Shown in pieces: positions 54,101 to 64,000 of a DNA stretch of 64,000 nt. Source of the DNA: Candidatus Aceula meridiana (GTDB lineage: Bacteria; Omnitrophota; Gorgyraeia; Zapsychrales; Aceulaceae). The notes below the pieces were generated by a model. It ran no database searches. It was not told where the DNA came from and saw nothing but the letters and a program-made list of their open reading frames with translations. The first letter of the stretch is position 1; every line of letters begins with the position of its first letter. The stretch spans positions 10,957 to 74,956 of the forward strand of contig JAVCDE010000033.1 of assembly GCA_030765185.1 (NCBI GenBank), in the 5' to 3' direction. The translations under genes were made by a program, and so were the position numbers.

Positions 54101-55114
54101 TTAATCCGAGGCAGGTGACGCGCAGGATTCGCGCGTAATAAGCTCTGGCTCTAAAAGAATCTTAACAGCAGAATGTTTGCGTCCTGCGACGATCGCATTA
54201 AGATTGCGGACAGCTTCTTCAGCCATTTTAAAGAGTGGCTGATGAACAGTCGTAAGGCTGATAGAGCCATAGAGGCCTGCAGGGTTATCGTCAAATCCAA
54301 CAACAGAAAGGTCTCTAGGGACCTTAAGGCCATTTTCAATAGCCACGTTAATGATCTCAAGGGCCATATCGTCACTGGCGGCAAAAATAGCCGTTGGGCG
54401 GTCTTTTTTAGGAAGAGCTAAAAACTTCTCAAGGGCAAGCCTCGCGCAGCGACGGGAATAATCACCTTCATAAATATATTTATCATTGATTCCAATCTTA
54501 CTTTTTTTAAAAATATTTTTATACCCTTCTAGACGGTGCATCCCGCTTTGCGTCTGAAGGCTTCCGGTTACGATTGCAATTTTTTGATGCCCTAGTCCAA
54601 CTAAATACTCTGTAGCAATTTCACCACCCTTGACATTGTCCACTGCAATGTAGTTAACGTCTAAATCGTCAACGATATTGTTCACAACCATGCAAGAAAT
54701 ATTCTCAGTCAACGCAGATTCAATTTGCTTTCGATTCTCAATAATATCTGCGAAAATAACACCGCCGACATTGGTTGTGTTTAATGGATTAAGTCCATTG
54801 GTAATATGAAAAACTAAGTCAATCTTTAAAGTTTCACAGGCGTGGCCCACTCCGCGGATTAATTCCATCGCATAAAATGAATGAAAAACACCCGGATAAC
54901 CCGGCATCACAAGCCCAACTGCCGTGCTTAGTCCCCTTGCTAGCCGCTGAGCGCTAACATTAGGCTTGAAATGTAAATGGGCAATGGCTTCTTCGACTTT
55001 TTCGCGATTTTTCTTAGAAACGGTAGAAACATTATTAATTACGCGCGAAACAGTTGTAATGGATACCCTTGCGCGCTTAGCGACATCCTCGATGCTTAGG
55101 TTTCTTTTTGTCAC
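54101..55114 (-). CDS. LacI-family transcriptional regulator
   Basis: N-terminal HTH SIEDVAKRARVSITTVSRVINN plus a periplasmic-binding-protein-like sugar-binding core. 337 aa. Confidence 0.85.
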   Translation of the reverse strand: MTKRNLSIEDVAKRARVSITTVSRVINNVSTVSKKNREKVEEAIAHLHFKPNVSAQRLARGLSTAVGLVMPGYPGVFHSFYAMELIRGVGHACETLKIDLVFHITNGLNPLNTTNVGGVIFADIIENRKQIESALTENISCMVVNNIVDDLDVNYIAVDNVKGGEIATEYLVGLGHQKIAIVTGSLQTQSGMHRLEGYKNIFKKSKIGINDKYIYEGDYSRRCARLALEKFLALPKKDRPTAIFAASDDMALEIINVAIENGLKVPRDLSVVGFDDNPAGLYGSISLTTVHQPLFKMAEEAVRNLNAIVAGRKHSAVKILLEPELITRESCASPASD

Positions 55115-55120
55115 AGTTTT

Positions 55121-56395
55121 TTATTTAATAATGTCGCCCGTTTGAAGCGGCATGGATTGTTGTTTGATATCTGCGGCAGAGATATCTTTGCGAACTTGGA
55201 TAACTTCTAACTCGCCGATATACTGTGAGCCGCGATAAACGCTGAAGGTGTCACCAATATTTGCACCAGAAGTCTCCCCGATGTCGATAATAACAAAATT
55301 ATTTTCTTGATTGATGTTGATAATTGAGCCTGCAGACTCAAAGGATGCTACAGGAGTTGTCTCCATAGGCTCAGAAGAAGGCATGTCGATTGCGCTGTTA
55401 CCGTTAACAACGATAGGCGGTAAGATAATTTCTTGGGATTGTGATCCGTTAAGTTTTCGGTCGATGTCGCGTCTAATGTCAGAAACCTCATCGATGCGGC
55501 TTTGTACAATCATTTCTGTTTCATCGAGTTTTTTTTCAATCTTATTCTTATCGCTCTGCAGCCTGGAAACACTCCTCTCTAAAATCACTTTAAGCGCTCC
55601 CAGCTGTTTGACCTGGGAGCGCAGTGATAAATTTTCATCTTTGATCTTTCCTAGATGCTCGTCTATAAACTGTTTATTATTCTTCTCACGTACTAAGTCT
55701 ACCGAAAGATTATCAATCATCTCTTGTGTACGTTTTGCTTTTTGTTCAATTTCGTCTCTCTCGTTCTTTAGATAACTAACTTCTAACCCTAAGTCGGTAT
55801 TTTCTTTCTTGAGCTCTTCAATCTCGATTGAGCTCTCAGCCAATTCATTTTCTAAATCTCCAACGCGTAAGCTCAATTCAGCTTTTTCTTGTAAAACATC
55901 AGCCCAATAGCTTTCAAGTTCTTTATCTGGTTCTTGGTCGACAGTCTGAGAAATCACAACAGGCGCAGCCTTTTGTATTGGTTTCTCTTGAAGCTTGGCA
56001 ATAGCATCATCTCTCTCTGTTTGAACTTCCTTATAACGATTTTTCCATTCATCTTTTGCTGCAGTTGCTTTTTCAATCTTATTGTTCATTTCAGCAATAC
56101 GATCTTGAAAAGCCTCAACTTGCCCAGTAAGCTCATCAACTTGATCCTCTAAATCTTCTTTAAAAGCAACAGCCTCCTCTGCTCTTTTAGACAACTCGTC
56201 TTTTTCTTGAGCCAAGGCCTCGGACTGCTTTTGACTCTGAATCAATTTCTTTTTTTGCTCGGACAATTCTGTCGTTATTTTTGCGTTGGCTTCGTCTAGT
56301 TCGGTCTTTTGGCTTAACGTCGAAAGAGCAATCCCAACACTCACAAGTAAAAGCAGAGCTAAAATAATAATAATCTGCTTAGCAACTTTTGACAT
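55121..56395 (-). CDS. Membrane-anchored long coiled-coil protein with small C-terminal beta domain
   Basis: TM helix, then about 300 aa of heptad-rich E/K/Q sequence, then C-terminal IIDIGETSGANIGDTFSVYRGSQYIGELEVIQV. It ends 6 nt upstream of the LacI-family gene. Confidence 0.4.
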   Translation of the reverse strand: MSKVAKQIIIILALLLLVSVGIALSTLSQKTELDEANAKITTELSEQKKKLIQSQKQSEALAQEKDELSKRAEEAVAFKEDLEDQVDELTGQVEAFQDRIAEMNNKIEKATAAKDEWKNRYKEVQTERDDAIAKLQEKPIQKAAPVVISQTVDQEPDKELESYWADVLQEKAELSLRVGDLENELAESSIEIEELKKENTDLGLEVSYLKNERDEIEQKAKRTQEMIDNLSVDLVREKNNKQFIDEHLGKIKDENLSLRSQVKQLGALKVILERSVSRLQSDKNKIEKKLDETEMIVQSRIDEVSDIRRDIDRKLNGSQSQEIILPPIVVNGNSAIDMPSSEPMETTPVASFESAGSIININQENNFVIIDIGETSGANIGDTFSVYRGSQYIGELEVIQVRKDISAADIKQQSMPLQTGDIIK

Positions 56396-56611
56396 AATTC
56401 CTCACTTGTTAAATAAATTCATTTTAAATACTGATATAATTTTATGTTATTCTTAATATATCAAAGAGTTAGATACAAAACAAGAAAAAGTATATTTTTT
56501 ATTATATTAATAAAAAAATAATTACTAACCCTGCGAATGCGGTGTTATTTCGTACAACGATTTACCCTCACCAGCGCTCCGTAAATTATACCCTTAATAA
56601 CTTAATAAAAT

Positions 56612-56641
56612 AAAGAGGGCTAGAAATTTCCAGCCCTCTTT
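56612..56641 (-). terminator. Intrinsic terminator after the lipoprotein gene
   Basis: A 10-bp stem aaagagggct...agccctcttt. The minus-strand RNA is then followed by AUUUUAUU. Confidence 0.55.
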
Positions 56642-56665
56642 ATAGAATAATACTTGCTCTGCTCT

Positions 56666-57310
56666 TTATTCGTATCTTATGTCGTCTAAATAAAAAGTAC
56701 AGCTCTCTGGGTTAACATCAACGTTAGTAGACCATGAGAACCCTCCGCTGACATATGTTAGATCTTTACCTCTTAGATCAATAGAATACTCTTTCCATTC
56801 ATTTGTCAAAATGACGGGCCCGATAAAAGCTGAATCGGTATCCGGATAGTCTCCCGTAACCCCACCCATTTTAATCTCTTCAATTCTCTCGCCGCCTTTT
56901 TCGCCTTTGGCCCAAAAAGTTAGCTTCGTTGCGCCATTGAGATTATAGCCACCTTTTCGGCTTCCCCAATTATGCGCGGGATTCTGCCAATAAATTCCGG
57001 CCCAGCGTGCACTTTCTCTTGAGCATTCAACATCGTAAATAACCTTGATACATGTCCTTTCCGAATGACAACTTTCCTGCCAACGGTCATTAAAATCGAG
57101 GCACTGTCCGTCGGGCATAAATCCCGATGGGATATAGTGATTGTCTCTGGACCCAATATTTGTATAAATAGGAAACGCCTTAAACTGAGTTTCTTCTTGT
57201 TGGTTGGAAGATGATTGATTTTCTTGATTGGATTTCTGCATGCACCCTGCAAAAATAACAAAAAGAACGCAGAGCCCCACCAGCCCTTTTTTCATTTGAT
57301 CCCCTTTCAA
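56666..57310 (-). CDS. Lipoprotein with Cys-rich putative carbohydrate-binding domain
   Basis: Lipobox FAGC. Five further Cys, and an aromatic-rich beta-sandwich-like C-terminus (WAGIYWQNPAHNWG...TFYLDDIRYE). It sits inside the sugar-utilisation locus. Confidence 0.4.
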   Translation of the reverse strand: MKGDQMKKGLVGLCVLFVIFAGCMQKSNQENQSSSNQQEETQFKAFPIYTNIGSRDNHYIPSGFMPDGQCLDFNDRWQESCHSERTCIKVIYDVECSRESARWAGIYWQNPAHNWGSRKGGYNLNGATKLTFWAKGEKGGERIEEIKMGGVTGDYPDTDSAFIGPVILTNEWKEYSIDLRGKDLTYVSGGFSWSTNVDVNPESCTFYLDDIRYE

Positions 57311-57369: not shown

Positions 57370-57396
57370 GTGTCCGCTGCTAGTGGCAGCGGACAC
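57370..57396 (-). terminator. Intrinsic terminator after the triple-repeat gene
   Basis: A perfect 11-bp stem gtgtccgctgc-tagt-ggcagcggacac. The minus-strand RNA is then followed by ..CCCUCUUUUAUG. Confidence 0.55.
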
Positions 57397-57401
57397 TCGA
57401 A

Positions 57402-58649
57402 TTACATTTCGTCTAGTTCTTGCACTCTTTGCTCAGCAGCTTGAGCCGGTTTCCAAAACCAGCCGTTTGCATCCCAGCATTGTGCATAAAAATATTCATT
57501 CATAACTTTGTTGAATGCTTTTTTAGCCTCAGGGACCATACCAGCTTTTTTATAAGCTTCGCCTTGAATAAAATAACATGTTCCGACATCATTTAAAGCC
57601 CAATAAGAAAAAATTTCTTCATTGGTTTCCCACGCATATTCCGTAAGAGAGGCCTGCATCTCTTTAGCTTTTTCTTCATAAATCTTAAGACATTTATTGG
57701 TATATGTTAAGACGAGATCTAAATCATCTTTATTTAACGCTTCCCATGCCTTTGTTGTTAAAGTTGCTGAAGAAGAATCGCCAAAATCAACATCAACTCC
57801 GGATTCGATAGCGTCAAGTTTTTCTTGCGCAGCTTCTGCCGGCTTCCAGAACCATCCGCCATTATCCCAACATTGTCCATAGGTGTATTCATCAACTAGT
57901 TTCTGATAAGTCTCTTTAGTTTCATCCATCATATCAGCCTTGCGATAGGCTTCAGCCTGAACAAAAAGAGAGGTCGCCACATCGTTTAAGGCCCACATCT
58001 TGAAAATTTCTTCCTTTTCTCCTTCAACATAGCCTTCTAGAGATGCCTGCATCTCTTTGGCTTTCTCGCTATATAGATCTAAACATTTGTTCACGTAGGT
58101 AGAAACAAGATCTACATCACCAGCATTTAATGCTTCCCAAGCTTTTGTGGTAAGCGTTGCTGAAGAAGAATCACCAAAATCAACATCAATTCCCGCCTCA
58201 ATCGCATCTAATCTTTCTTGCGCAGCTTCTGCCGGCTTCCAAAACCATCCGCCAACATCCCATGTTTGACCATAGGTATATTCATCAACTAATTTCTGAT
58301 AAGTCTCCTTGGCTTCATCCATCATGTTGGCTTTGCGATAGGCCTCAGCTTGAATAAAAAGGCAAGTGGCCACATCATTTAAGGCCCACATTTTAAAAAT
58401 ATCATCTTTTTCCCCTTCAACATAACCCTCTAGAGATGCCTGCATTTTTTTTGCTTGTGCGCCATAAAGTTCAATACACTTATTTGTGTATGCTAAAACA
58501 GCCTCAATATCACCTGAATTCAAGGCATCCCATCCCTTTGTTGCTAGCGTAACAGAACGATAATCGCCAAAATTATACGCGCTGGCAATCATGGGACTCG
58601 CAAGCCCAATTCCAAGCACAAGCAAAGCAGTAATTAAAACTCTTTTCAT
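57402..58649 (-). CDS. Secreted protein made of three tandem copies of a ~131-aa helical domain (ALNDVAT / WD-GW-WKPAEAAQE motifs)
   Basis: Signal peptide, then three units of about 131 aa, each containing TLTTKAWEALN..., FKMWALNDVAT, YTYGQ.WD.GGWFWKPAEAAQE.LDAIE and DVDFGDSSSA. The DNA units are 393 bp long with about 85% identity. Confidence 0.7.
   Translation of the reverse strand: MKRVLITALLVLGIGLASPMIASAYNFGDYRSVTLATKGWDALNSGDIEAVLAYTNKCIELYGAQAKKMQASLEGYVEGEKDDIFKMWALNDVATCLFIQAEAYRKANMMDEAKETYQKLVDEYTYGQTWDVGGWFWKPAEAAQERLDAIEAGIDVDFGDSSSATLTTKAWEALNAGDVDLVSTYVNKCLDLYSEKAKEMQASLEGYVEGEKEEIFKMWALNDVATSLFVQAEAYRKADMMDETKETYQKLVDEYTYGQCWDNGGWFWKPAEAAQEKLDAIESGVDVDFGDSSSATLTTKAWEALNKDDLDLVLTYTNKCLKIYEEKAKEMQASLTEYAWETNEEIFSYWALNDVGTCYFIQGEAYKKAGMVPEAKKAFNKVMNEYFYAQCWDANGWFWKPAQAAEQRVQELDEM
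57441..58620. repeat. 3 x 393-bp in-frame tandem DNA repeat within the CDS
   Basis: The anchor sequence gccggcttccaraaccatccgcc recurs at 57838 and 58231, and in diverged form at 57445. The period is 393 bp. Confidence 0.75.
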
Positions 58650-58767
58650 TTTCCTACCTCCCTTTATCTTGTTTGATTAATTGATTAATATTTATTATTC
58701 TCCATTTGCCATGAATTGTAAGTATAGCATGCTTATCGACCTTTTGCCGAGAATTTAAAAAGTCCTG

Positions 58768-61089
58768 TTACGGATTCCAAACTCCCTGATAATAGTAATA
58801 AGCCTTGCGTAATTGCCTCATAAATGGACTAAAACTACCATTTCCTTGCCCTGTGATCCCAAACCACTCTTCATACATATATCCATCTGGAAAAGGCCCC
58901 TGAGCCCCAGCTGTTTTATCATGAAAACAAGGCTCATAATTCTTCCACCATTCATCAATCCACTCGAAAATAACCCCACCTAGCGCATTGCCAACACCAT
59001 CTTTTGTCCCTGAGGCATTAAACATAATATCGTCCCAGGCCCCTTTGTGGTAATCAGCCTGAGCCTGTTCAGCATCTTCACGCTCAAGAAAATTTGCATA
59101 AGCCGGACATCCATATTCTGTAATAAAAGCCGGTTTTCCGGTGGCATCGAAAACCTGCTCCCAAAATGACCCGAACCCATAATCCCCGCGATAGGCATTT
59201 GCCGTAAAAATATCCACATTGGGACAATTTTCAGCAAAAACATCTAAAAATAAACTGTCCCCATTGCACATCGCAACAGGCCGAGTATTATCAATAGTTT
59301 TGATCATTCGGGCAACTTCATCAACAAACTGATAGTAAGCTGCTGGTTTTTTGTCAGCATTACACCCTAGGCCATAATTGTTTTCATTACCTAAAAGCCA
59401 CATCAAAACAAATGGCTCATCTTTAAATTCTTCAACCATGGCACGTACAGATGCCAGCATGTTTTTCTTATGCTCAAGATTTTCGTAATCTGTTCCTTCA
59501 AACCATGTCGCTCCTGAACCCAAGGCATACTTTCCTAAAAAATCACTCATAATCGTCATGATGCCATAATTTTCATAAAGATCACGCAATACTTCTTTAG
59601 TTGGATTGTTAGGCTGTTTATAAACACGGATGGTATTGACACCCATTTCTTTTAAAAGCTGAAAATCTCCAACAACCGGTTCATCTGGATCTTTGTCGTT
59701 ATTAAAATTCTTATCGATCCAGGAGTCATACGGCCCATCAGGCTTGCCGTTATTATTAGTGTCTTCAAGCATCCAGTCTTCCATGGTGCCTTTATCCGGG
59801 CTCTGGCAAACTTTTGTAGATTGGTAGGTTATTGCCTGAATCATAAACGGCTTGCCGTCGACCTGAAGCTGCCAATGTCCTGTTTTAGAATCCTGGACCA
59901 ATTTTACCTTTTCGCCGCCAATGACCTGACTTGGATTTTTGATAAGCTTTTGAGAAGAAGGCTTGTTAAAATATTTCCTAAATTTTTCTTTAACTTTATC
60001 AATCCAAGTTTTTTTGGCGAGCGTACCCGGCCAGGTAATGACAACATCGTTAAAAATGTCGTTATCAAAACCATTGATAACTTGAATCCTTGCGCCTTCA
60101 TATTTTAGATCAAGCTCGGGATGAATATTCACTAAATGTCTAATTTTTGCAATAGCTGCCTGAGCCGGATACCATGGTGTATTCCAATAAGTTTTCCCAA
60201 CAGCTTTAGGAAAATGAACTTGAATAACGCGGTAGCATTTCAAAGCTTCATAGAGCATGTCAGCTTTCTCAAAAAGAAGTCCTAAATAAAAAAGTTTTAC
60301 GCCTTGAGGCTCTGAGGCCATCGCCCATTTATAAAATGCTACCTCAAGGTCGTCGGTGTGGACATAGTCCCAATGACTACCTTGAAGACGCCCTTCTTTT
60401 TTTAGTTGACGATAAAGCGGATCTTTTAAAACACCGGATGTGTTTGGATAAATGCCTTCGCCAATCGCTTTCATCAAGCCTGCCGGGTCATCCATTTTAT
60501 AAACATAATCTTTGGTGCCGACGTTTAAAAAACGTCCATATTCCTTATAATCTATAATATCTTCGGTCCCCGGCGTGTGCAATTTTGGCATCGTTTTTTG
60601 ACCACGGTCCACTTGCTCAACCTGAGTTTCCTCGTAACGCCCTTCAAGCTTATCTAAACTTGCCTGACTTTTTTCAGCAATCGACCAATACCATCCTCGA
60701 GGATCCCACGTTTGAGACCATGGAAAATCATCGACAATAGTGTGAAAAATTTCTTTAGCCCTATCCATTTCTCCAAGGTACATTAAGGATTCCGCATAAA
60801 TAAAATTACAGGTGGCAACGTCATTTAATGCAAAATAATCATCCTCTGTTCCTTTAGCTGGAAAATCACTCAATAAAGCCTGCTGCGCTAAGGCCTCATC
60901 CTTATAATTTTTAATGCATTCTTTGGCTAGGCGTTCAACCTCCTCAAAATTATTGCTTGATGATGCCTCCCAAGCCTTACGCACATACTCGTTAGAAGGC
61001 GAAACTTCTGCCTGCGCATTTGTGCAAATAAAATAAAATCCAAAAAATAAAATTGTTCCCAAAATGACTTTAAATAATTGTTTTTTCAT
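58768..61089 (-). CDS. Secreted clan GH-A (TIM-barrel) glycoside hydrolase with N-terminal copy of the 131-aa repeat domain
   Basis: 773 aa. Signal peptide. The N-terminal about 150 aa carry YFALNDVATCNFIYAE...QTWDPRGWYWSIAEKSQASLDKLE, which is homologous to the repeats of the neighbouring gene. Candidate acid/base in MWLLGNENNYG (NE motif) and candidate nucleophile in FITEYGCP (TEYG motif), as in GH2/GH5-type enzymes. Confidence 0.65.
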   Translation of the reverse strand: MKKQLFKVILGTILFFGFYFICTNAQAEVSPSNEYVRKAWEASSSNNFEEVERLAKECIKNYKDEALAQQALLSDFPAKGTEDDYFALNDVATCNFIYAESLMYLGEMDRAKEIFHTIVDDFPWSQTWDPRGWYWSIAEKSQASLDKLEGRYEETQVEQVDRGQKTMPKLHTPGTEDIIDYKEYGRFLNVGTKDYVYKMDDPAGLMKAIGEGIYPNTSGVLKDPLYRQLKKEGRLQGSHWDYVHTDDLEVAFYKWAMASEPQGVKLFYLGLLFEKADMLYEALKCYRVIQVHFPKAVGKTYWNTPWYPAQAAIAKIRHLVNIHPELDLKYEGARIQVINGFDNDIFNDVVITWPGTLAKKTWIDKVKEKFRKYFNKPSSQKLIKNPSQVIGGEKVKLVQDSKTGHWQLQVDGKPFMIQAITYQSTKVCQSPDKGTMEDWMLEDTNNNGKPDGPYDSWIDKNFNNDKDPDEPVVGDFQLLKEMGVNTIRVYKQPNNPTKEVLRDLYENYGIMTIMSDFLGKYALGSGATWFEGTDYENLEHKKNMLASVRAMVEEFKDEPFVLMWLLGNENNYGLGCNADKKPAAYYQFVDEVARMIKTIDNTRPVAMCNGDSLFLDVFAENCPNVDIFTANAYRGDYGFGSFWEQVFDATGKPAFITEYGCPAYANFLEREDAEQAQADYHKGAWDDIMFNASGTKDGVGNALGGVIFEWIDEWWKNYEPCFHDKTAGAQGPFPDGYMYEEWFGITGQGNGSFSPFMRQLRKAYYYYQGVWNP

Positions 61090-61928
61090 CCGGCAATAGC
61101 TCCTGCTGATAGACCTTTAATAATGTGTTTTTGCATAAACAAGTAGACTAAAATGACCGGTAATGCCGTAATAGACAAACCTGCCATCAAAAGCGGATAG
61201 TCCGTGCTATGCGACCCTTGGAAAACCATCAACCCCCTTTGTAAAGGCATCAGGTTTTTATCGTTTAAAAGAAGTGTTGCTAAAATATATTCATTCCAAA
61301 CATTCAGCGTGTTAAAAATAACAATAACCGCAATCGCGGGCCTTGCCAAAGGCAACGCCACGTGACGCCAAATGCCCAACTTCGAACATCCATCCATGCG
61401 CGCGGCATCTTCTAAGGCCGGCGACATTTTGTCAAAAAATGTTTTAAGAATGTAGATGCTTAGAGAAAGGCCTACATTAATCATGCAAAGAATATATCCG
61501 ATGCGCGTATTCGCCAAATGAAGCTTGTTCATCAAAACATAGAGCGGAACGAAACTTCCCGGCAAGGGAATCATCATAGCAGCTAAAAACATATAAAAGA
61601 AAAAATTCTTCCCCGGAAAATCTAGACGAGAAAACGCATAAGCCGCCAAAGAAGCAACCATCACAATACCAAAAACAACGCTAACAGTGTAAATCACGCT
61701 GTTGATAAAATACATTCCAAAGCCACCTTTAGTCCACGCTAGATAAAAATTCTCAAAATGAATACTCGCCGGAATAAGGGCCTTATCAACAAACACTGTT
61801 TCATTAGTCATTAACGCTGAACGAAACATCCAGATAAGGGGAAAAAGACATGTTATGGCAACAGCCATCAAAAGCGTATGCAAAAATATCGATTGAATGA
61901 CACTTTTTGCTTTAAAGCGATTTAGCAT
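61086..61928 (-). CDS. Carbohydrate ABC transporter permease (MalG-like)
   Basis: 280 aa with 6 TM segments and an EAA-like loop (LEDAARMDGCSKLGIWRHVALPLARP). ATGA overlap with the GH gene. Confidence 0.85.
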   Translation of the reverse strand: MLNRFKAKSVIQSIFLHTLLMAVAITCLFPLIWMFRSALMTNETVFVDKALIPASIHFENFYLAWTKGGFGMYFINSVIYTVSVVFGIVMVASLAAYAFSRLDFPGKNFFFYMFLAAMMIPLPGSFVPLYVLMNKLHLANTRIGYILCMINVGLSLSIYILKTFFDKMSPALEDAARMDGCSKLGIWRHVALPLARPAIAVIVIFNTLNVWNEYILATLLLNDKNLMPLQRGLMVFQGSHSTDYPLLMAGLSITALPVILVYLFMQKHIIKGLSAGAIAG

Positions 61929-61938
61929 AAACTTGTCC

Positions 61939-62874
61939 CTACCTTGCCTCGTCTTGTTTAAATCTTTTTGAAATTTTGTTTAACGTAAATGAGCTAACAA
62001 TCAAAATAAAACCAAAAACAATGCCCTGTGCACAAGCATAACCAAAACGGCTTAACCCTGTCATGGAAAGTAAAATGCGCGTAACCGGGACTTCTGTGTG
62101 ATACACTAGCCCTTGTCCCACCATCGAAAGCACAAGAACAAAAACCTGCATTGAACCTAAAATCGTCAAAATCATCACCATAAGAAATACCGGAACCATC
62201 ATCGGAATCGTGATGTCTTTAAGCGTGCGAAATGGCCCTGCTCCGTCAACGCGGGCAGCCTCATAAAGTTGCCGGTCTATGGTTTGCAGCCCGGCAAGCA
62301 TAATGATAAATCCCCAGCCAAAGCCTTTCCAGCTATGAACCAAGGCAATACACGTCAAAGCGGTCTTAGGGTCAGAGAGCCAATTATGCACCAAATGATT
62401 CAAATGAGCTTTTGTCAAAAAAAAGTTTAAAAGCCCTATAGGCTCGCCCGATTGAATTCCAGAGTGCAAAATCCACTGCCAGATTAAACCAACAACAACT
62501 TCGGATAAAACCGGCGGTAGATAAAAAACAACACGATAAAATTTACGTGCGCGGATATCACGATCGCAGGACAGCGCCAAACCAAAGGCCAAAGCGTTTT
62601 GAAAGATCAGAGCAATCAAGGTAATGTAGCCGGCATGCCACATCGAAGTCCACCACACCTTGTCTTGCATAATTTCTTTAAAATTACCAAGCCCTATAAA
62701 TGTACGGGTCAAACCTATTCCATCCCATTCGTGAAAAGATAAGTTAAGAATTTCATAAAAAGGATAAATATAAAAAACAGCAAAAATAGCAACAGCAGGA
62801 AAGATAAAAAGATAATTCTCTGCGGTGCCTTTAAACTCTAAAAAAGAAAACCTTTTTGCTTTTGTTTCAGCCAT
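61939..62874 (-). CDS. Carbohydrate ABC transporter permease (MalF-like)
   Basis: 311 aa. EAA motif YEAARVDGAGPFRTLKDITIPMM. Confidence 0.85.
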   Translation of the reverse strand: MAETKAKRFSFLEFKGTAENYLFIFPAVAIFAVFYIYPFYEILNLSFHEWDGIGLTRTFIGLGNFKEIMQDKVWWTSMWHAGYITLIALIFQNALAFGLALSCDRDIRARKFYRVVFYLPPVLSEVVVGLIWQWILHSGIQSGEPIGLLNFFLTKAHLNHLVHNWLSDPKTALTCIALVHSWKGFGWGFIIMLAGLQTIDRQLYEAARVDGAGPFRTLKDITIPMMVPVFLMVMILTILGSMQVFVLVLSMVGQGLVYHTEVPVTRILLSMTGLSRFGYACAQGIVFGFILIVSSFTLNKISKRFKQDEAR

Positions 62875-64000
62875 TATCTTCGGTTTTTTGCTCTTTCGAG
62901 TTGACGAATTTTTATCCTCTGAACTTCTTCTGCCGCCTGTTCAGGACTTCTCTCCCCTATACTTATAGACTGTATTTCTTTGCCAAAAGTTTCAGTCACA
63001 AGAGGATCTTCATTATATTTCCAGGTGGATGGATGCGTTATATCATCCATTGCAGACGCAAACTGGGAAAGAATTTCCGGAATCGAAGACAACGCATGTC
63101 GATTAGATGGCAAATTTTTTGTCTCCGCCGATAAAAAGACCTGTTGCCTTTCTGAAGTGAGCCATTTCAAGAAATCAATCGCTTTATCTTTTTTCTTCGA
63201 AGAATTATTGACCATAAACGAAGATCCGGCTGCACCCCAAATTCTCATCGGAAGATTAGGGTTAACTTTTGGCGGAAGCATCGCACCATATTCAAGGTCT
63301 GGATTCATGCCATTGTAAACATTGACACACCAGGAACCATTAAAAGCAAATGCCGCACGCTCGAGGGCAAAATCTTGTTCGGCATATTTGTTGTTTTTGG
63401 TTACAATACCCTTAAAAAGCGCGTCGCTATCCCGTAGTCTTTCAAAAATTCTAAAAACCTCGACCCAATCATTATCTGTGTAAGGAACTTCTCCACGATA
63501 AGTTGCCATGATTTTTTCTTCGCCCATGATATTAAAAGCGTAATTTGAGGCAAAACAATCAAGTAGCCACAGCTCGCCCCATCCAGAGATCAAACCGTCA
63601 ACACCAATACGACGTAAAGCATGAATGTCTTCAATAAATTCATCAAATGTTCTTGGCGGCCTTCCAATACCAGCTTTTTTCAAAAGCTTCTCGTTATAAA
63701 GCATTTGAATATTCATAACATCAATCGGAACTCCATAAATGCCCGGCTTAACACTGTATATGTTTCCTTCTTCAAACCGATTTACATTAAGAGCCTTGGC
63801 AAACAAGCTCTTTTCCCAGATCCCTTCATTTTTCTGAAACTCCTCTGTCAAGTCGGCAACAAATCCGCTTTTAACAAAAACGGCAAATTTTTCTTTTTCT
63901 TTTAGAATTCCATAGATATCAGGAAGGACACGGGCTTGGGCTGCGGCAATGATTTTTTGTGAATACGCATCTGAAGGGGCATAAAGTTCAAATTTAACTT
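62874..64000 (-). CDS. ABC transporter sugar-binding protein, 5'-partial (continues beyond the window end)
   Basis: The frame stays open from 62874 to the window edge (my translation: ..VKFELYAPSDAYSQKIIAAAQARVLPDIYGILKEKEKFAVFVKSGFVADLTEEFQKNEGIWEKS..). The ORF-track 'M' at 63851 is an internal TTG codon, not the real start. The fold is that of a family-1 solute-binding protein. Confidence 0.7.
   Translation of the reverse strand, partial: VKFELYAPSDAYSQKIIAAAQARVLPDIYGILKEKEKFAVFVKSGFVADLTEEFQKNEGIWEKSLFAKALNVNRFEEGNIYSVKPGIYGVPIDVMNIQMLYNEKLLKKAGIGRPPRTFDEFIEDIHALRRIGVDGLISGWGELWLLDCFASNYAFNIMGEEKIMATYRGEVPYTDNDWVEVFRIFERLRDSDALFKGIVTKNNKYAEQDFALERAAFAFNGSWCVNVYNGMNPDLEYGAMLPPKVNPNLPMRIWGAAGSSFMVNNSSKKKDKAIDFLKWLTSERQQVFLSAETKNLPSNRHALSSIPEILSQFASAMDDITHPSTWKYNEDPLVTETFGKEIQSISIGERSPEQAAEEVQRIKIRQLERAKNRR

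Follow-up and report, generated by a model that had tools for sequence, protein, structure and literature searches.

Arrays of modified TPR modules beside a GH158-like hydrolase in a conserved locus of Omnitrophota, probably for beta-1,3-glucan use

Introduction

A gene of Candidatus Aceula meridiana, located in the window of 64,000 nucleotides which was analyzed here (contig JAVCDE010000033.1, positions 10,957 to 74,956), codes for an exported protein of 415 aa that consists almost entirely of three copies of one unit, and the adjacent gene codes for an exported hydrolase carrying the same unit. This raises the questions what the unit is, how the third copy came about and what such an array does next to a glycoside hydrolase (GH) and an ABC sugar transporter. 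Ca. Aceula is a genus of the Omnitrophota within the PVC group. Almost no members of the Omnitrophota have been cultured, and little is known about their physiology. A sequence-only reading of the region had proposed a novel domain, a recent triplication and a role in glycan binding or cell-surface anchoring.

The answers given here differ from that reading in the first two points. The unit is predicted to be a variant of the tetratricopeptide repeat (TPR), and the third copy goes back to an old recombination event. For the account as a whole, which comprises an exported TPR array, a unit-bearing GH158-like hydrolase, a conserved glucan locus, a crossover chimera and an extracytoplasmic binding module, we estimate a probability of roughly 60%.

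Architecture and Fold of the Repeated Unit

As the sequence-only reading had stated, the 415-aa protein was found to comprise a signal peptide followed by three in-frame copies of one unit, at aa 29–159, 160–290, and 291–415 (Table 1). Signal peptides, as well as the lipobox of a neighboring lipoprotein, were assigned by eye from the sequence. The single units are matched by a hidden Markov model (HMM) with E-values of 1e-73 to 1e-81, and their recurrence is far beyond chance. A period of 393 bp within the gene was found consistently by TRF and by a repeat finder, and GGGAGG serves as ribosome binding site. The DNA identity between the units, which had been given as about 85%, is lower when whole units are compared. 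It amounts to 78% for units 1 and 2 (77% on the amino acid level), 65% for units 2 and 3 (60%) and 63% for units 1 and 3 (52%). For units 1 and 2, the nucleotide identity rises to 83% only when the comparison is restricted to their C-terminal two thirds, and the best core reported by TRF has 84%. The sequence blocks which had been described as invariant also vary, since unit 1 has KGWDALN and unit 3 has FSYWALNDVGT and YAQCWDANGWFWKPAQAAEQ.

Several independent searches connect the unit to TPR proteins. In the Pfam scan of the array protein, TPR_6 (PF13174) reached 59.9 bits in total (cutoff 26.3) in three stretches, one per unit, and TPR_2 (PF07719) and TPR_1 passed their cutoffs as well (32.6 vs. 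27 bits and 28.1 vs. 27.8 bits). The NCBI entry for the exact protein is already named tetratricopeptide repeat protein, more than 1,200 relatives bear the same annotation and JGI also labels the family TPR. An AlphaFold2 model of the array protein, built with 64 homologs, has a pLDDT of 92.2 and shows the same layout in every unit, consisting of helices of about 13, 24, (5), 19, and 14 residues, a beta-hairpin at WDxGGWFWKP and a 13-residue capping helix. When the model was compared to the PDB using Foldseek, the top 50 matches were all TPR-type helical-repeat proteins, among them the consensus protein CTPR8, kinesin light chain (KLC), P58IPK, and OGT. The global TM-scores of the model to TPR superhelices are low (0.14–0.36), which is due to the arrangement of the three modules as separate beads instead of a single superhelix. 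A profile of 27 unit sequences matches CTPR3, KLC and CpoB via two distinct stretches, positions 14–43 and 60–90, which indicates two TPR motifs per unit. The first helix pair of each module is shortened and carries W-x-x-L, and the second pair is of the TPR_6 type. From our reading of the alignment, the block W-E-A-L-N would correspond to the canonical TPR signature W4-L7-(G8).

The family has features of its own, namely a Trp-rich hairpin with the consensus Q-x-W-D-x-x-G-W-F-W-K-P (Q100-x-W102-D103-x-x-G106-W107-x-W109-K-P in unit numbering), an ALND block with which the third helix begins, and a linker of the form (D/N)FGD(Y/S)xS, which precedes every unit and is also present at the mature N-terminus. 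The family-specific invariant residues W, N, D, Q, and G are located in the ALND and WDxxGWxW blocks. The hairpin, the ALND block and the linker are covered by no solved structure or Pfam model, and the unit profile search against PDB sequences gave no match for hairpin and linker. Pfam matches extend over no more than about 29 residues of each 131-residue unit, and the precomputed lists of relatives contain no dedicated Pfam family for the unit. These uncovered parts are what might be expected of a new fold or a new helical domain of the carbohydrate-binding module (CBM) type without relation to known families. Nevertheless, the curated cutoffs exceeded by the TPR models, the two TPR motifs found by profile, the Foldseek matches and the annotations at NCBI and JGI all point to TPR, and a new fold was rejected at the fold level and is considered very unlikely.

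Other families were examined as well. No CBM family matched the unit in the Pfam scan at E ≤ 1, and the unit is almost wholly helical in the model. The SLH domain gave no match in the Pfam and NCBIfam scans. The SusD family gave no Pfam match, the predicted signal ends with ASA before Y and lacks a lipobox cysteine, and the neighboring genes code for an ABC transporter. The sequence-only reading had called the domain novel and had named a clean assignment to a CBM, SLH or TPR family as the outcome that would speak against this; such an assignment was largely obtained for TPR, which leaves only the hairpin and the linker as family-specific. As predicted from the model and the alignments, the unit is a distinct TPR sub-family that elaborates the TPR fold, and the fold itself is not new. 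This two-motif TPR module with a Trp-hairpin is specific to the Omnitrophota and a few neighboring lineages.

Origin of the Third Unit

Most relatives of the array protein contain two units. Among the 120 best homologs, 98 have two units, 12 have three, eight have four and two have five. In 80 species-representative genomes, two-unit arrays were found 76 times and three-unit arrays twice, and the congener Ca. Aceula lacicola has a two-unit array. A tree of the units separates N-type from C-terminal-type (C-type) units across the whole family, so that the basic duplication must be ancient. The two-unit array composed of an N-type and a C-type unit is the ancestral and usual state.

Unit 2 is a chimera with a C-type head and an N-type body, which was formed by one 393-bp unequal crossover in a two-unit gene. 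At the first 21 sites where units 1 and 3 differ, unit 2 follows unit 3 in 14 cases and unit 1 in four, and at the later differing sites it follows unit 1 in 77 cases and unit 3 in 19. On the protein level, residues 1–45 of unit 2 are 82% identical to unit 3, and residues 46–120 are 88% identical to unit 1. The same offset register is visible in family D1 of the repeat finder. Such a unit is what a single unequal crossover between the N-type and C-type units should yield, equivalent to the tandem duplication of 393 bp across the unit boundary. A middle unit with a head like the last and a body like the first unit is present in 10 of 11 three-unit homologs. Their grouping by lineage in the tree indicates several independent events or gene conversion.

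The synonymous divergence (dS) between units 1 and 2 is 1.15, and it exceeds 2.2 between either of them and unit 3. It is about 1.2–1.5 in both halves of the chimera, and therefore the crossover in this gene is old. For comparison, unit 1 and its ortholog from Ca. A. lacicola show a dS of 1.6, which is comparable to the value for units 1 and 2. The dN/dS ratio between the units is about 0.1 and indicates purifying selection. The longest identical in-register runs between units have 28, 17, and 11 nt, and since the longest comprises only 28 nt, slippage or recombination should be infrequent at present.

A triplication of recent date, as it had been proposed, is not consistent with these values, with the family-wide presence of the N-type/C-type pair and with a third copy derived from an old crossover. 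A young and unstable tandem repeat, with copies generated by slippage or merely by mis-assembly, would agree with the 393-bp period, with the range of one to six units across the family and with the three-unit forms in several lineages. It is contradicted by the divergence of the copies, their short identical runs and the purifying selection, by the N-type/C-type split common to the whole family and by three-unit orthologs in independent assemblies. Near-identical copies with long identical tracts are not present, and this explanation was rejected as extremely improbable. An assembly artifact, which had been mentioned as a finding that would invalidate the repeat, is excluded by the divergence of the copies, by the purifying selection acting on them and by the occurrence of three-unit orthologs in independent assemblies. 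Of the copy-number change that had been suggested for the gene, the evolutionary part stands, as the compared sequences indicate that it is a real habit of the family, but the suggested present-day instability does not.

The Adjacent Hydrolase

The neighboring 773-aa clan GH-A hydrolase is indeed headed by the same unit in a more diverged form (Table 1), with E-values of 1e-21 (BLASTP) and 3e-25 (HMM). The earlier reading was correct with regard to this full N-terminal copy but had overlooked a partial second copy at aa 225–322 (E about 1e-4). Two unit matches were found in 86 of 120 hydrolase homologs. The N-terminal region of about 450 residues contains the TPR unit, an insert, the partial unit, a beta-sandwich and a loop rich in Asp and Asn.

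This loop (59680–59827 on the minus strand, aa ~421–470; EDTNNNGKPDGPYDSWIDKNFNNDKDPDEP) is located between the beta-sandwich and the barrel and has no modelled secondary structure. In 66 homologs, no variation was seen at many D, N, G, and P positions of the loop. It presumably resembles calcium-binding loops of the D-x-D type.

In the Pfam scan, the hydrolase matches the TIM barrel Glyco_hydro_2_C with E = 4.5e-14. The best sequence match is GH158 (phmmer E = 9e-11; family profile against PDB E = 3e-15), and the best fold matches are the GH158 structures 9P26 and 6PAL (Foldseek E = 6e-13, TM-score 0.58 on the target), with GH2 and GH72 close behind. The residues N568 and E569 of a GNE motif and E658 of a TEYG motif, whose Glu residues are the predicted catalytic pair of this retaining clan GH-A hydrolase, are invariant in the 66 homologs and align with the GNE and TE(F/W)G motifs of GH158. 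The identity to GH158 is only about 21% with coverage limited to the core barrel, so that the hydrolase is only a candidate member of the GH158 family.

Table 1. Coordinates of the array gene, the hydrolase gene and further features of the locus in the window.
Feature	Position	Strand	Evidence
Exported TPR-array protein gene, 415 aa, three 131-aa units	57402..58649	(-)	ORF call; same sequence as the NCBI entry 'tetratricopeptide repeat protein' of Ca. Aceula meridiana
Predicted Sec signal peptide, aa 1-24 (MKRVLITALLVLGIGLASPMIASA, followed by YNFGD)	58578..58649	(-)	Read by eye from sequence; helix 2-16, low pLDDT in model
Unit 1 (N-type; aa 29-159) with two TPR motifs, Trp-rich beta-hairpin, capping helix, DVDFG linker	58173..58565	(-)	
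Unit 2, aa 160-290, chimera: first ~22-45 codons unit 3-like, remainder unit 1-like; product of 393-bp unequal crossover	57780..58172	(-)	
Unit 3 (C-terminal type; aa 291-415), ortholog of the second unit in the common two-unit proteins	57405..57779	(-)	
Exported clan GH-A hydrolase gene (GH158-like), 773 aa; start overlaps permease stop	58768..61089	(-)	
Complete TPR unit copy heading the hydrolase, aa 30-150, 35% identity with unit 2	60640..61002	(-)	BLASTP, HMM
Partial second unit copy (aa 225-322 of the hydrolase) with second TPR motif, hairpin and cap	60124..60417	(-)	
Predicted catalytic (beta/alpha)8 barrel, hydrolase aa ~470-773	58771..59682	(-)	
ABC sugar-transporter permease genes, two (61086-61928, 61939-62874)	61086..62874	(-)	
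ABC solute-binding protein gene, cut by window end	62874..64000	(-)	
Predicted lipoprotein gene, 209 aa, unassigned family; most faithful downstream partner of array gene	56666..57295	(-)	
Strong terminator-like hairpin, 15-bp stem then T-rich tail, 3' of lipoprotein gene	56610..56643	(-)	
Gene of 424-aa protein: N-terminal membrane anchor, long coiled coil, small C-terminal domain	55121..56395	(-)	
LacI-family regulator gene, end of locus	54101..55114	(-)	

A Conserved Locus in the Omnitrophota

The sugar-uptake context which had been recognized earlier was confirmed, as genes for an ABC importer adjoin the hydrolase gene and the order of the genes is conserved in 80 loci. In these 80 species-representative Omnitrophota loci, the nearly fixed order is a GH94 gene (seen in part of the loci), the solute-binding protein, two permeases, the TPR-hydrolase, the TPR array, the lipoprotein, the coiled-coil protein, LacI and MnmG. 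Of the 80 loci, 73 have the hydrolase directly upstream of the array, and in 74 the lipoprotein follows directly downstream of it. The coiled-coil protein was found in 65 loci and LacI in 60, and GH94, which was scored within a 10-kb flank, in 34. The array and the hydrolase are fixed members of a locus that is conserved in at least 70 Omnitrophota species. The GH94 protein of one syntenic locus gave a full-length alignment with the laminaribiose phosphorylase 6GGY (E = 4e-267). From the synteny in the other genomes, a GH94 gene can be assumed for Ca. Aceula meridiana as well, where it would lie beyond the end of the window. The frame of the solute-binding protein is open to the window end, which means that the gene is cut by the window; a frameshift in this gene was rejected for the same reason. 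Literature searches on Omnitrophota in combination with TPR and glycoside hydrolases, laminarin or laminaribiose phosphorylase, and on GH158, returned no description of the module or the operon.

The stop codon of the permease gene (61086..61928) overlaps the start of the hydrolase gene (58768..61089) at 61086–61089, which suggests that the translation of the exported enzyme is coupled to that of the transporter genes. On the minus strand, a strong terminator-like hairpin occurs only behind the lipoprotein gene, and the transcription unit that includes the array gene likely ends there. This fits a single predicted transcription unit from the transporter genes to the lipoprotein gene.

A second, smaller structure is situated 6 nt past the stop codon of the array gene. 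It is a perfect 11-bp GC-rich hairpin at 57370–57396 on the minus strand (GTGTCCGCTGC-CACTA-GCAGCGGACAC) with a T-run about 10 nt beyond it, and it was not called by the consensus terminator scan. It could be a partial terminator or an mRNA-stabilizing element that separates the expression of the array from that of the lipoprotein.

Some Omnitrophota, e.g., the isolates nzgw300 and nzgw301, have a second, orphan array gene with two units away from the conserved operon (loci L031, L046, and L050). None of the profiled partner genes was found within 10 kb of these orphan arrays. An array protein (P0042) and a TPR-hydrolase (P0240) share one contig of 3,513 bp labelled 'Candidatus Bathyarchaeia archaeon' at NCBI, and many loci are labelled 'uncultured Planctomycetales'. 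Since the synteny is specific to Omnitrophota, these labels are probably binning or labelling errors.

Distribution and Fusions of the Unit

A profile search of 1.84 billion representative proteins resulted in 1,466 clusters with one to six units, many of which are exported single-unit proteins of 145–230 aa. Fusions were found with the glycosyl-hydrolase core PF11790, a GH72-like hydrolase with Ig-like domains, a cellulose-synthase-like transferase of family GT2 and a chitobiase C-terminal domain, and also with a Ser/Thr kinase and an RHS protein. The topology always places the unit outside the cytoplasm. In the kinase fusion it follows a transmembrane (TM) segment, in the GT2 fusion it lies between one TM segment and three further ones that precede the transferase, and elsewhere signal peptides are present.

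Lipoprotein and Coiled-Coil Protein

The 209-aa lipoprotein has a lipobox (...FAGC), five further conserved cysteines and the C-terminal sequence FYLDDIRYE. Its family comprises about 1,330 homologs, all of them labelled 'hypothetical', and some consist of two tandem copies (~330–375 aa). In a check for CBM-likeness, made for a lipoprotein of 214 aa, a search of the family profile against the PDB gave no match even at E ≤ 10. In a Pfam scan of 31 members no family was above threshold; there was one sub-threshold match to CBM30 (E = 0.004), besides a weak match to the NCBIfam entry 'choice-of-anchor J' (E = 0.0045). The lipoprotein may possibly be CBM-like, and it is less recognizable than the TPR unit itself.

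In the 424-aa protein, about 300 residues form a coiled coil, and a small domain at the C-terminus (NFVIIDIGETSG...GDIIK) is conserved. The protein is 39% identical to its counterpart in locus L001, and only weak coiled-coil-type matches such as SMC were obtained.

In a distant locus with a five-unit array (L003), the pair of array and lipoprotein is kept (34% identity, E = 3e-41) without a hydrolase nearby. This locus contains two paralogous cassettes (L003:1872-14683), each with a TPR array, a lipoprotein homolog of about 225 aa, a protein of about 480–499 aa and a protein of about 196 aa. The cassettes are flanked by two LacI genes and adjoin genes resembling those of type IV pili or type II secretion systems. 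Neither Pfam nor the PDB yielded a match for the 499-aa and 197-aa proteins.

Proposed Function of the Module

The locus is probably used for the utilization of beta-1,3-glucan. The exported GH158-like hydrolase would cut the glucan, the ABC importer would take up the released beta-1,3-gluco-oligosaccharides, GH94 would phosphorolyse laminaribiose, and LacI would regulate the locus. The TPR module would be a non-catalytic extracytoplasmic binding module, and it would hold the beta-glucan chain through the conserved Trp/Asn/Asp/Gln cluster; alternatively, it would dock hydrolase, array, lipoprotein and membrane anchor into one envelope complex. The number of units would set the valency. A ligand-binding accessory module is the best reading because of the invariant Trp, Asn, Asp, Gln, and Gly residues, the fusion partners and the operon. 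The idea of glycan binding or anchoring which had been put forward before is plausible, with indirect support from fusion partners and topology.

Which ligand is bound is the point at which the two versions part. We tentatively favor direct binding of beta-glucan over protein-protein scaffolding, at somewhat less than even odds. In the scaffolding version, hydrolase, lipoprotein and coiled-coil protein would be held together by the array in an envelope complex beside the ABC importer, and the array would not touch the glycan. This would suit the canonical TPR fold, the presence of the same unit on two adjacent gene products, the strict joint conservation of the array, lipoprotein and coiled-coil genes, the persistence of the array–lipoprotein pair in the distant five-unit locus without adjacent hydrolase, and the fusions to kinase and RHS proteins, which are not related to carbohydrates. 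The repeated fusion of the unit to carbohydrate-active domains, catalytic or accessory, of at least four different kinds and the many exported proteins that consist of a single unit speak against a mere scaffold, and the invariant Trp/Asn/Asp/Gln set would seem more like a sugar site than like a peptide groove. We regard pure scaffolding as somewhat less probable than glycan binding, but as a serious rival.

Glycan binding has to face several points as well. TPR domains classically bind peptides or proteins and not glycans, and the unit has no similarity to any CBM in the Pfam scan. The locus already holds a solute-binding protein and possibly a CBM-like lipoprotein. The conserved Trp residues may also have a merely structural role, in which they would pack the hairpin onto the helices. 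With kinase and RHS proteins among its fusion partners, the unit is not restricted to carbohydrate enzymes, and the assignment to beta-1,3-glucan is based on 21% identity to GH158 and on GH94 genes from syntenic genomes. Further-reaching, and in our estimate unlikely, is the proposal that the module would be a TPR-based, beta-glucan-specific CBM which, together with the lipoprotein and the coiled-coil protein, would form a glycan-capture apparatus of the Omnitrophota with a valency tuned by recurrent unequal crossover.

Comparison With Known Systems

The periplasmic TPR domain of CpoB/YbgF and the designed protein CTPR3 resemble the module in their antiparallel helix-pair motifs, the C-terminal capping helix and the small size of two to three motifs per module, and CpoB is exported to the periplasm like the array protein. 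In contrast to them, the array module has only two motifs, of which the first combines a shortened A helix with a long B helix, and carries a conserved Trp-rich beta-hairpin between motif 2 and the cap. Its modules are separate beads joined by a (D/N)FGD linker instead of a continuous superhelix, and the unit is tied to carbohydrate-active enzymes.

PgaA, PelB, BcsC, and AlgK contain periplasmic TPR modules beside polysaccharide-processing hydrolases, and polymer binding has been reported for some of them. Their TPRs are long continuous superhelices fused to outer-membrane beta-barrels in biosynthetic operons, whereas the array locus with its importer and phosphorylase is catabolic and its modules are discrete.

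The hydrolase shares the clan GH-A barrel and the aligned GNE and TE(F/W/Y)G motifs with GH158 (BuGH158, 6PAL; GH158(Pro), 9ORO/9P26). Apart from the low identity of about 21%, it differs by the extra N-terminal region of about 450 residues, which is absent from the solved GH158 chains of about 400 residues. TPR is not mentioned in the GH158 literature that was searched.

In loci that serve Bacteroides for the use of beta(1,3)-glucan, the SusD-like surface glycan-binding proteins (SGBPs) SGBP-A and SGBP-B are found alongside GH158 (PMC7157763). Like the array protein, they are non-catalytic exported proteins encoded beside a GH158-type endo-beta-1,3-glucanase in a regulated glucan locus. The array protein differs in lacking SusD sequence or Pfam similarity and in its predicted Sec signal, which is not that of a lipoprotein. 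SusD itself also uses a TPR scaffold. The array locus has an ABC importer and a GH94 phosphorylase, whereas that of Bacteroides has a SusC TonB-dependent transporter and GH3. The array protein may be seen as a counterpart of the SGBPs by functional analogy only.

Implications

As a new domain the unit is of little import, as it is a TPR variant which is already labelled as such in public annotation. It stands for a large TPR sub-family of ~1,500 clusters, located exclusively outside the cytoplasm, which has a conserved Trp-rich hairpin and is repeatedly found together with glycan-active enzymes, and it is a concrete candidate for a glycan-binding module of helical instead of beta-sandwich architecture. 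The array gene is also a clean example of growth in repeat number, with a chimeric middle unit formed via unequal crossover between diverged repeats in several lineages.

For the Omnitrophota, the locus is a very strongly conserved and apparently undescribed operon, probably for beta-1,3-glucan use, with two core genes that have no assigned function. If the proposed glycan-capture apparatus proves true, it would correspond to the SusD/SGBP system outside the Bacteroidota and would supply an ABC importer and a laminaribiose phosphorylase.

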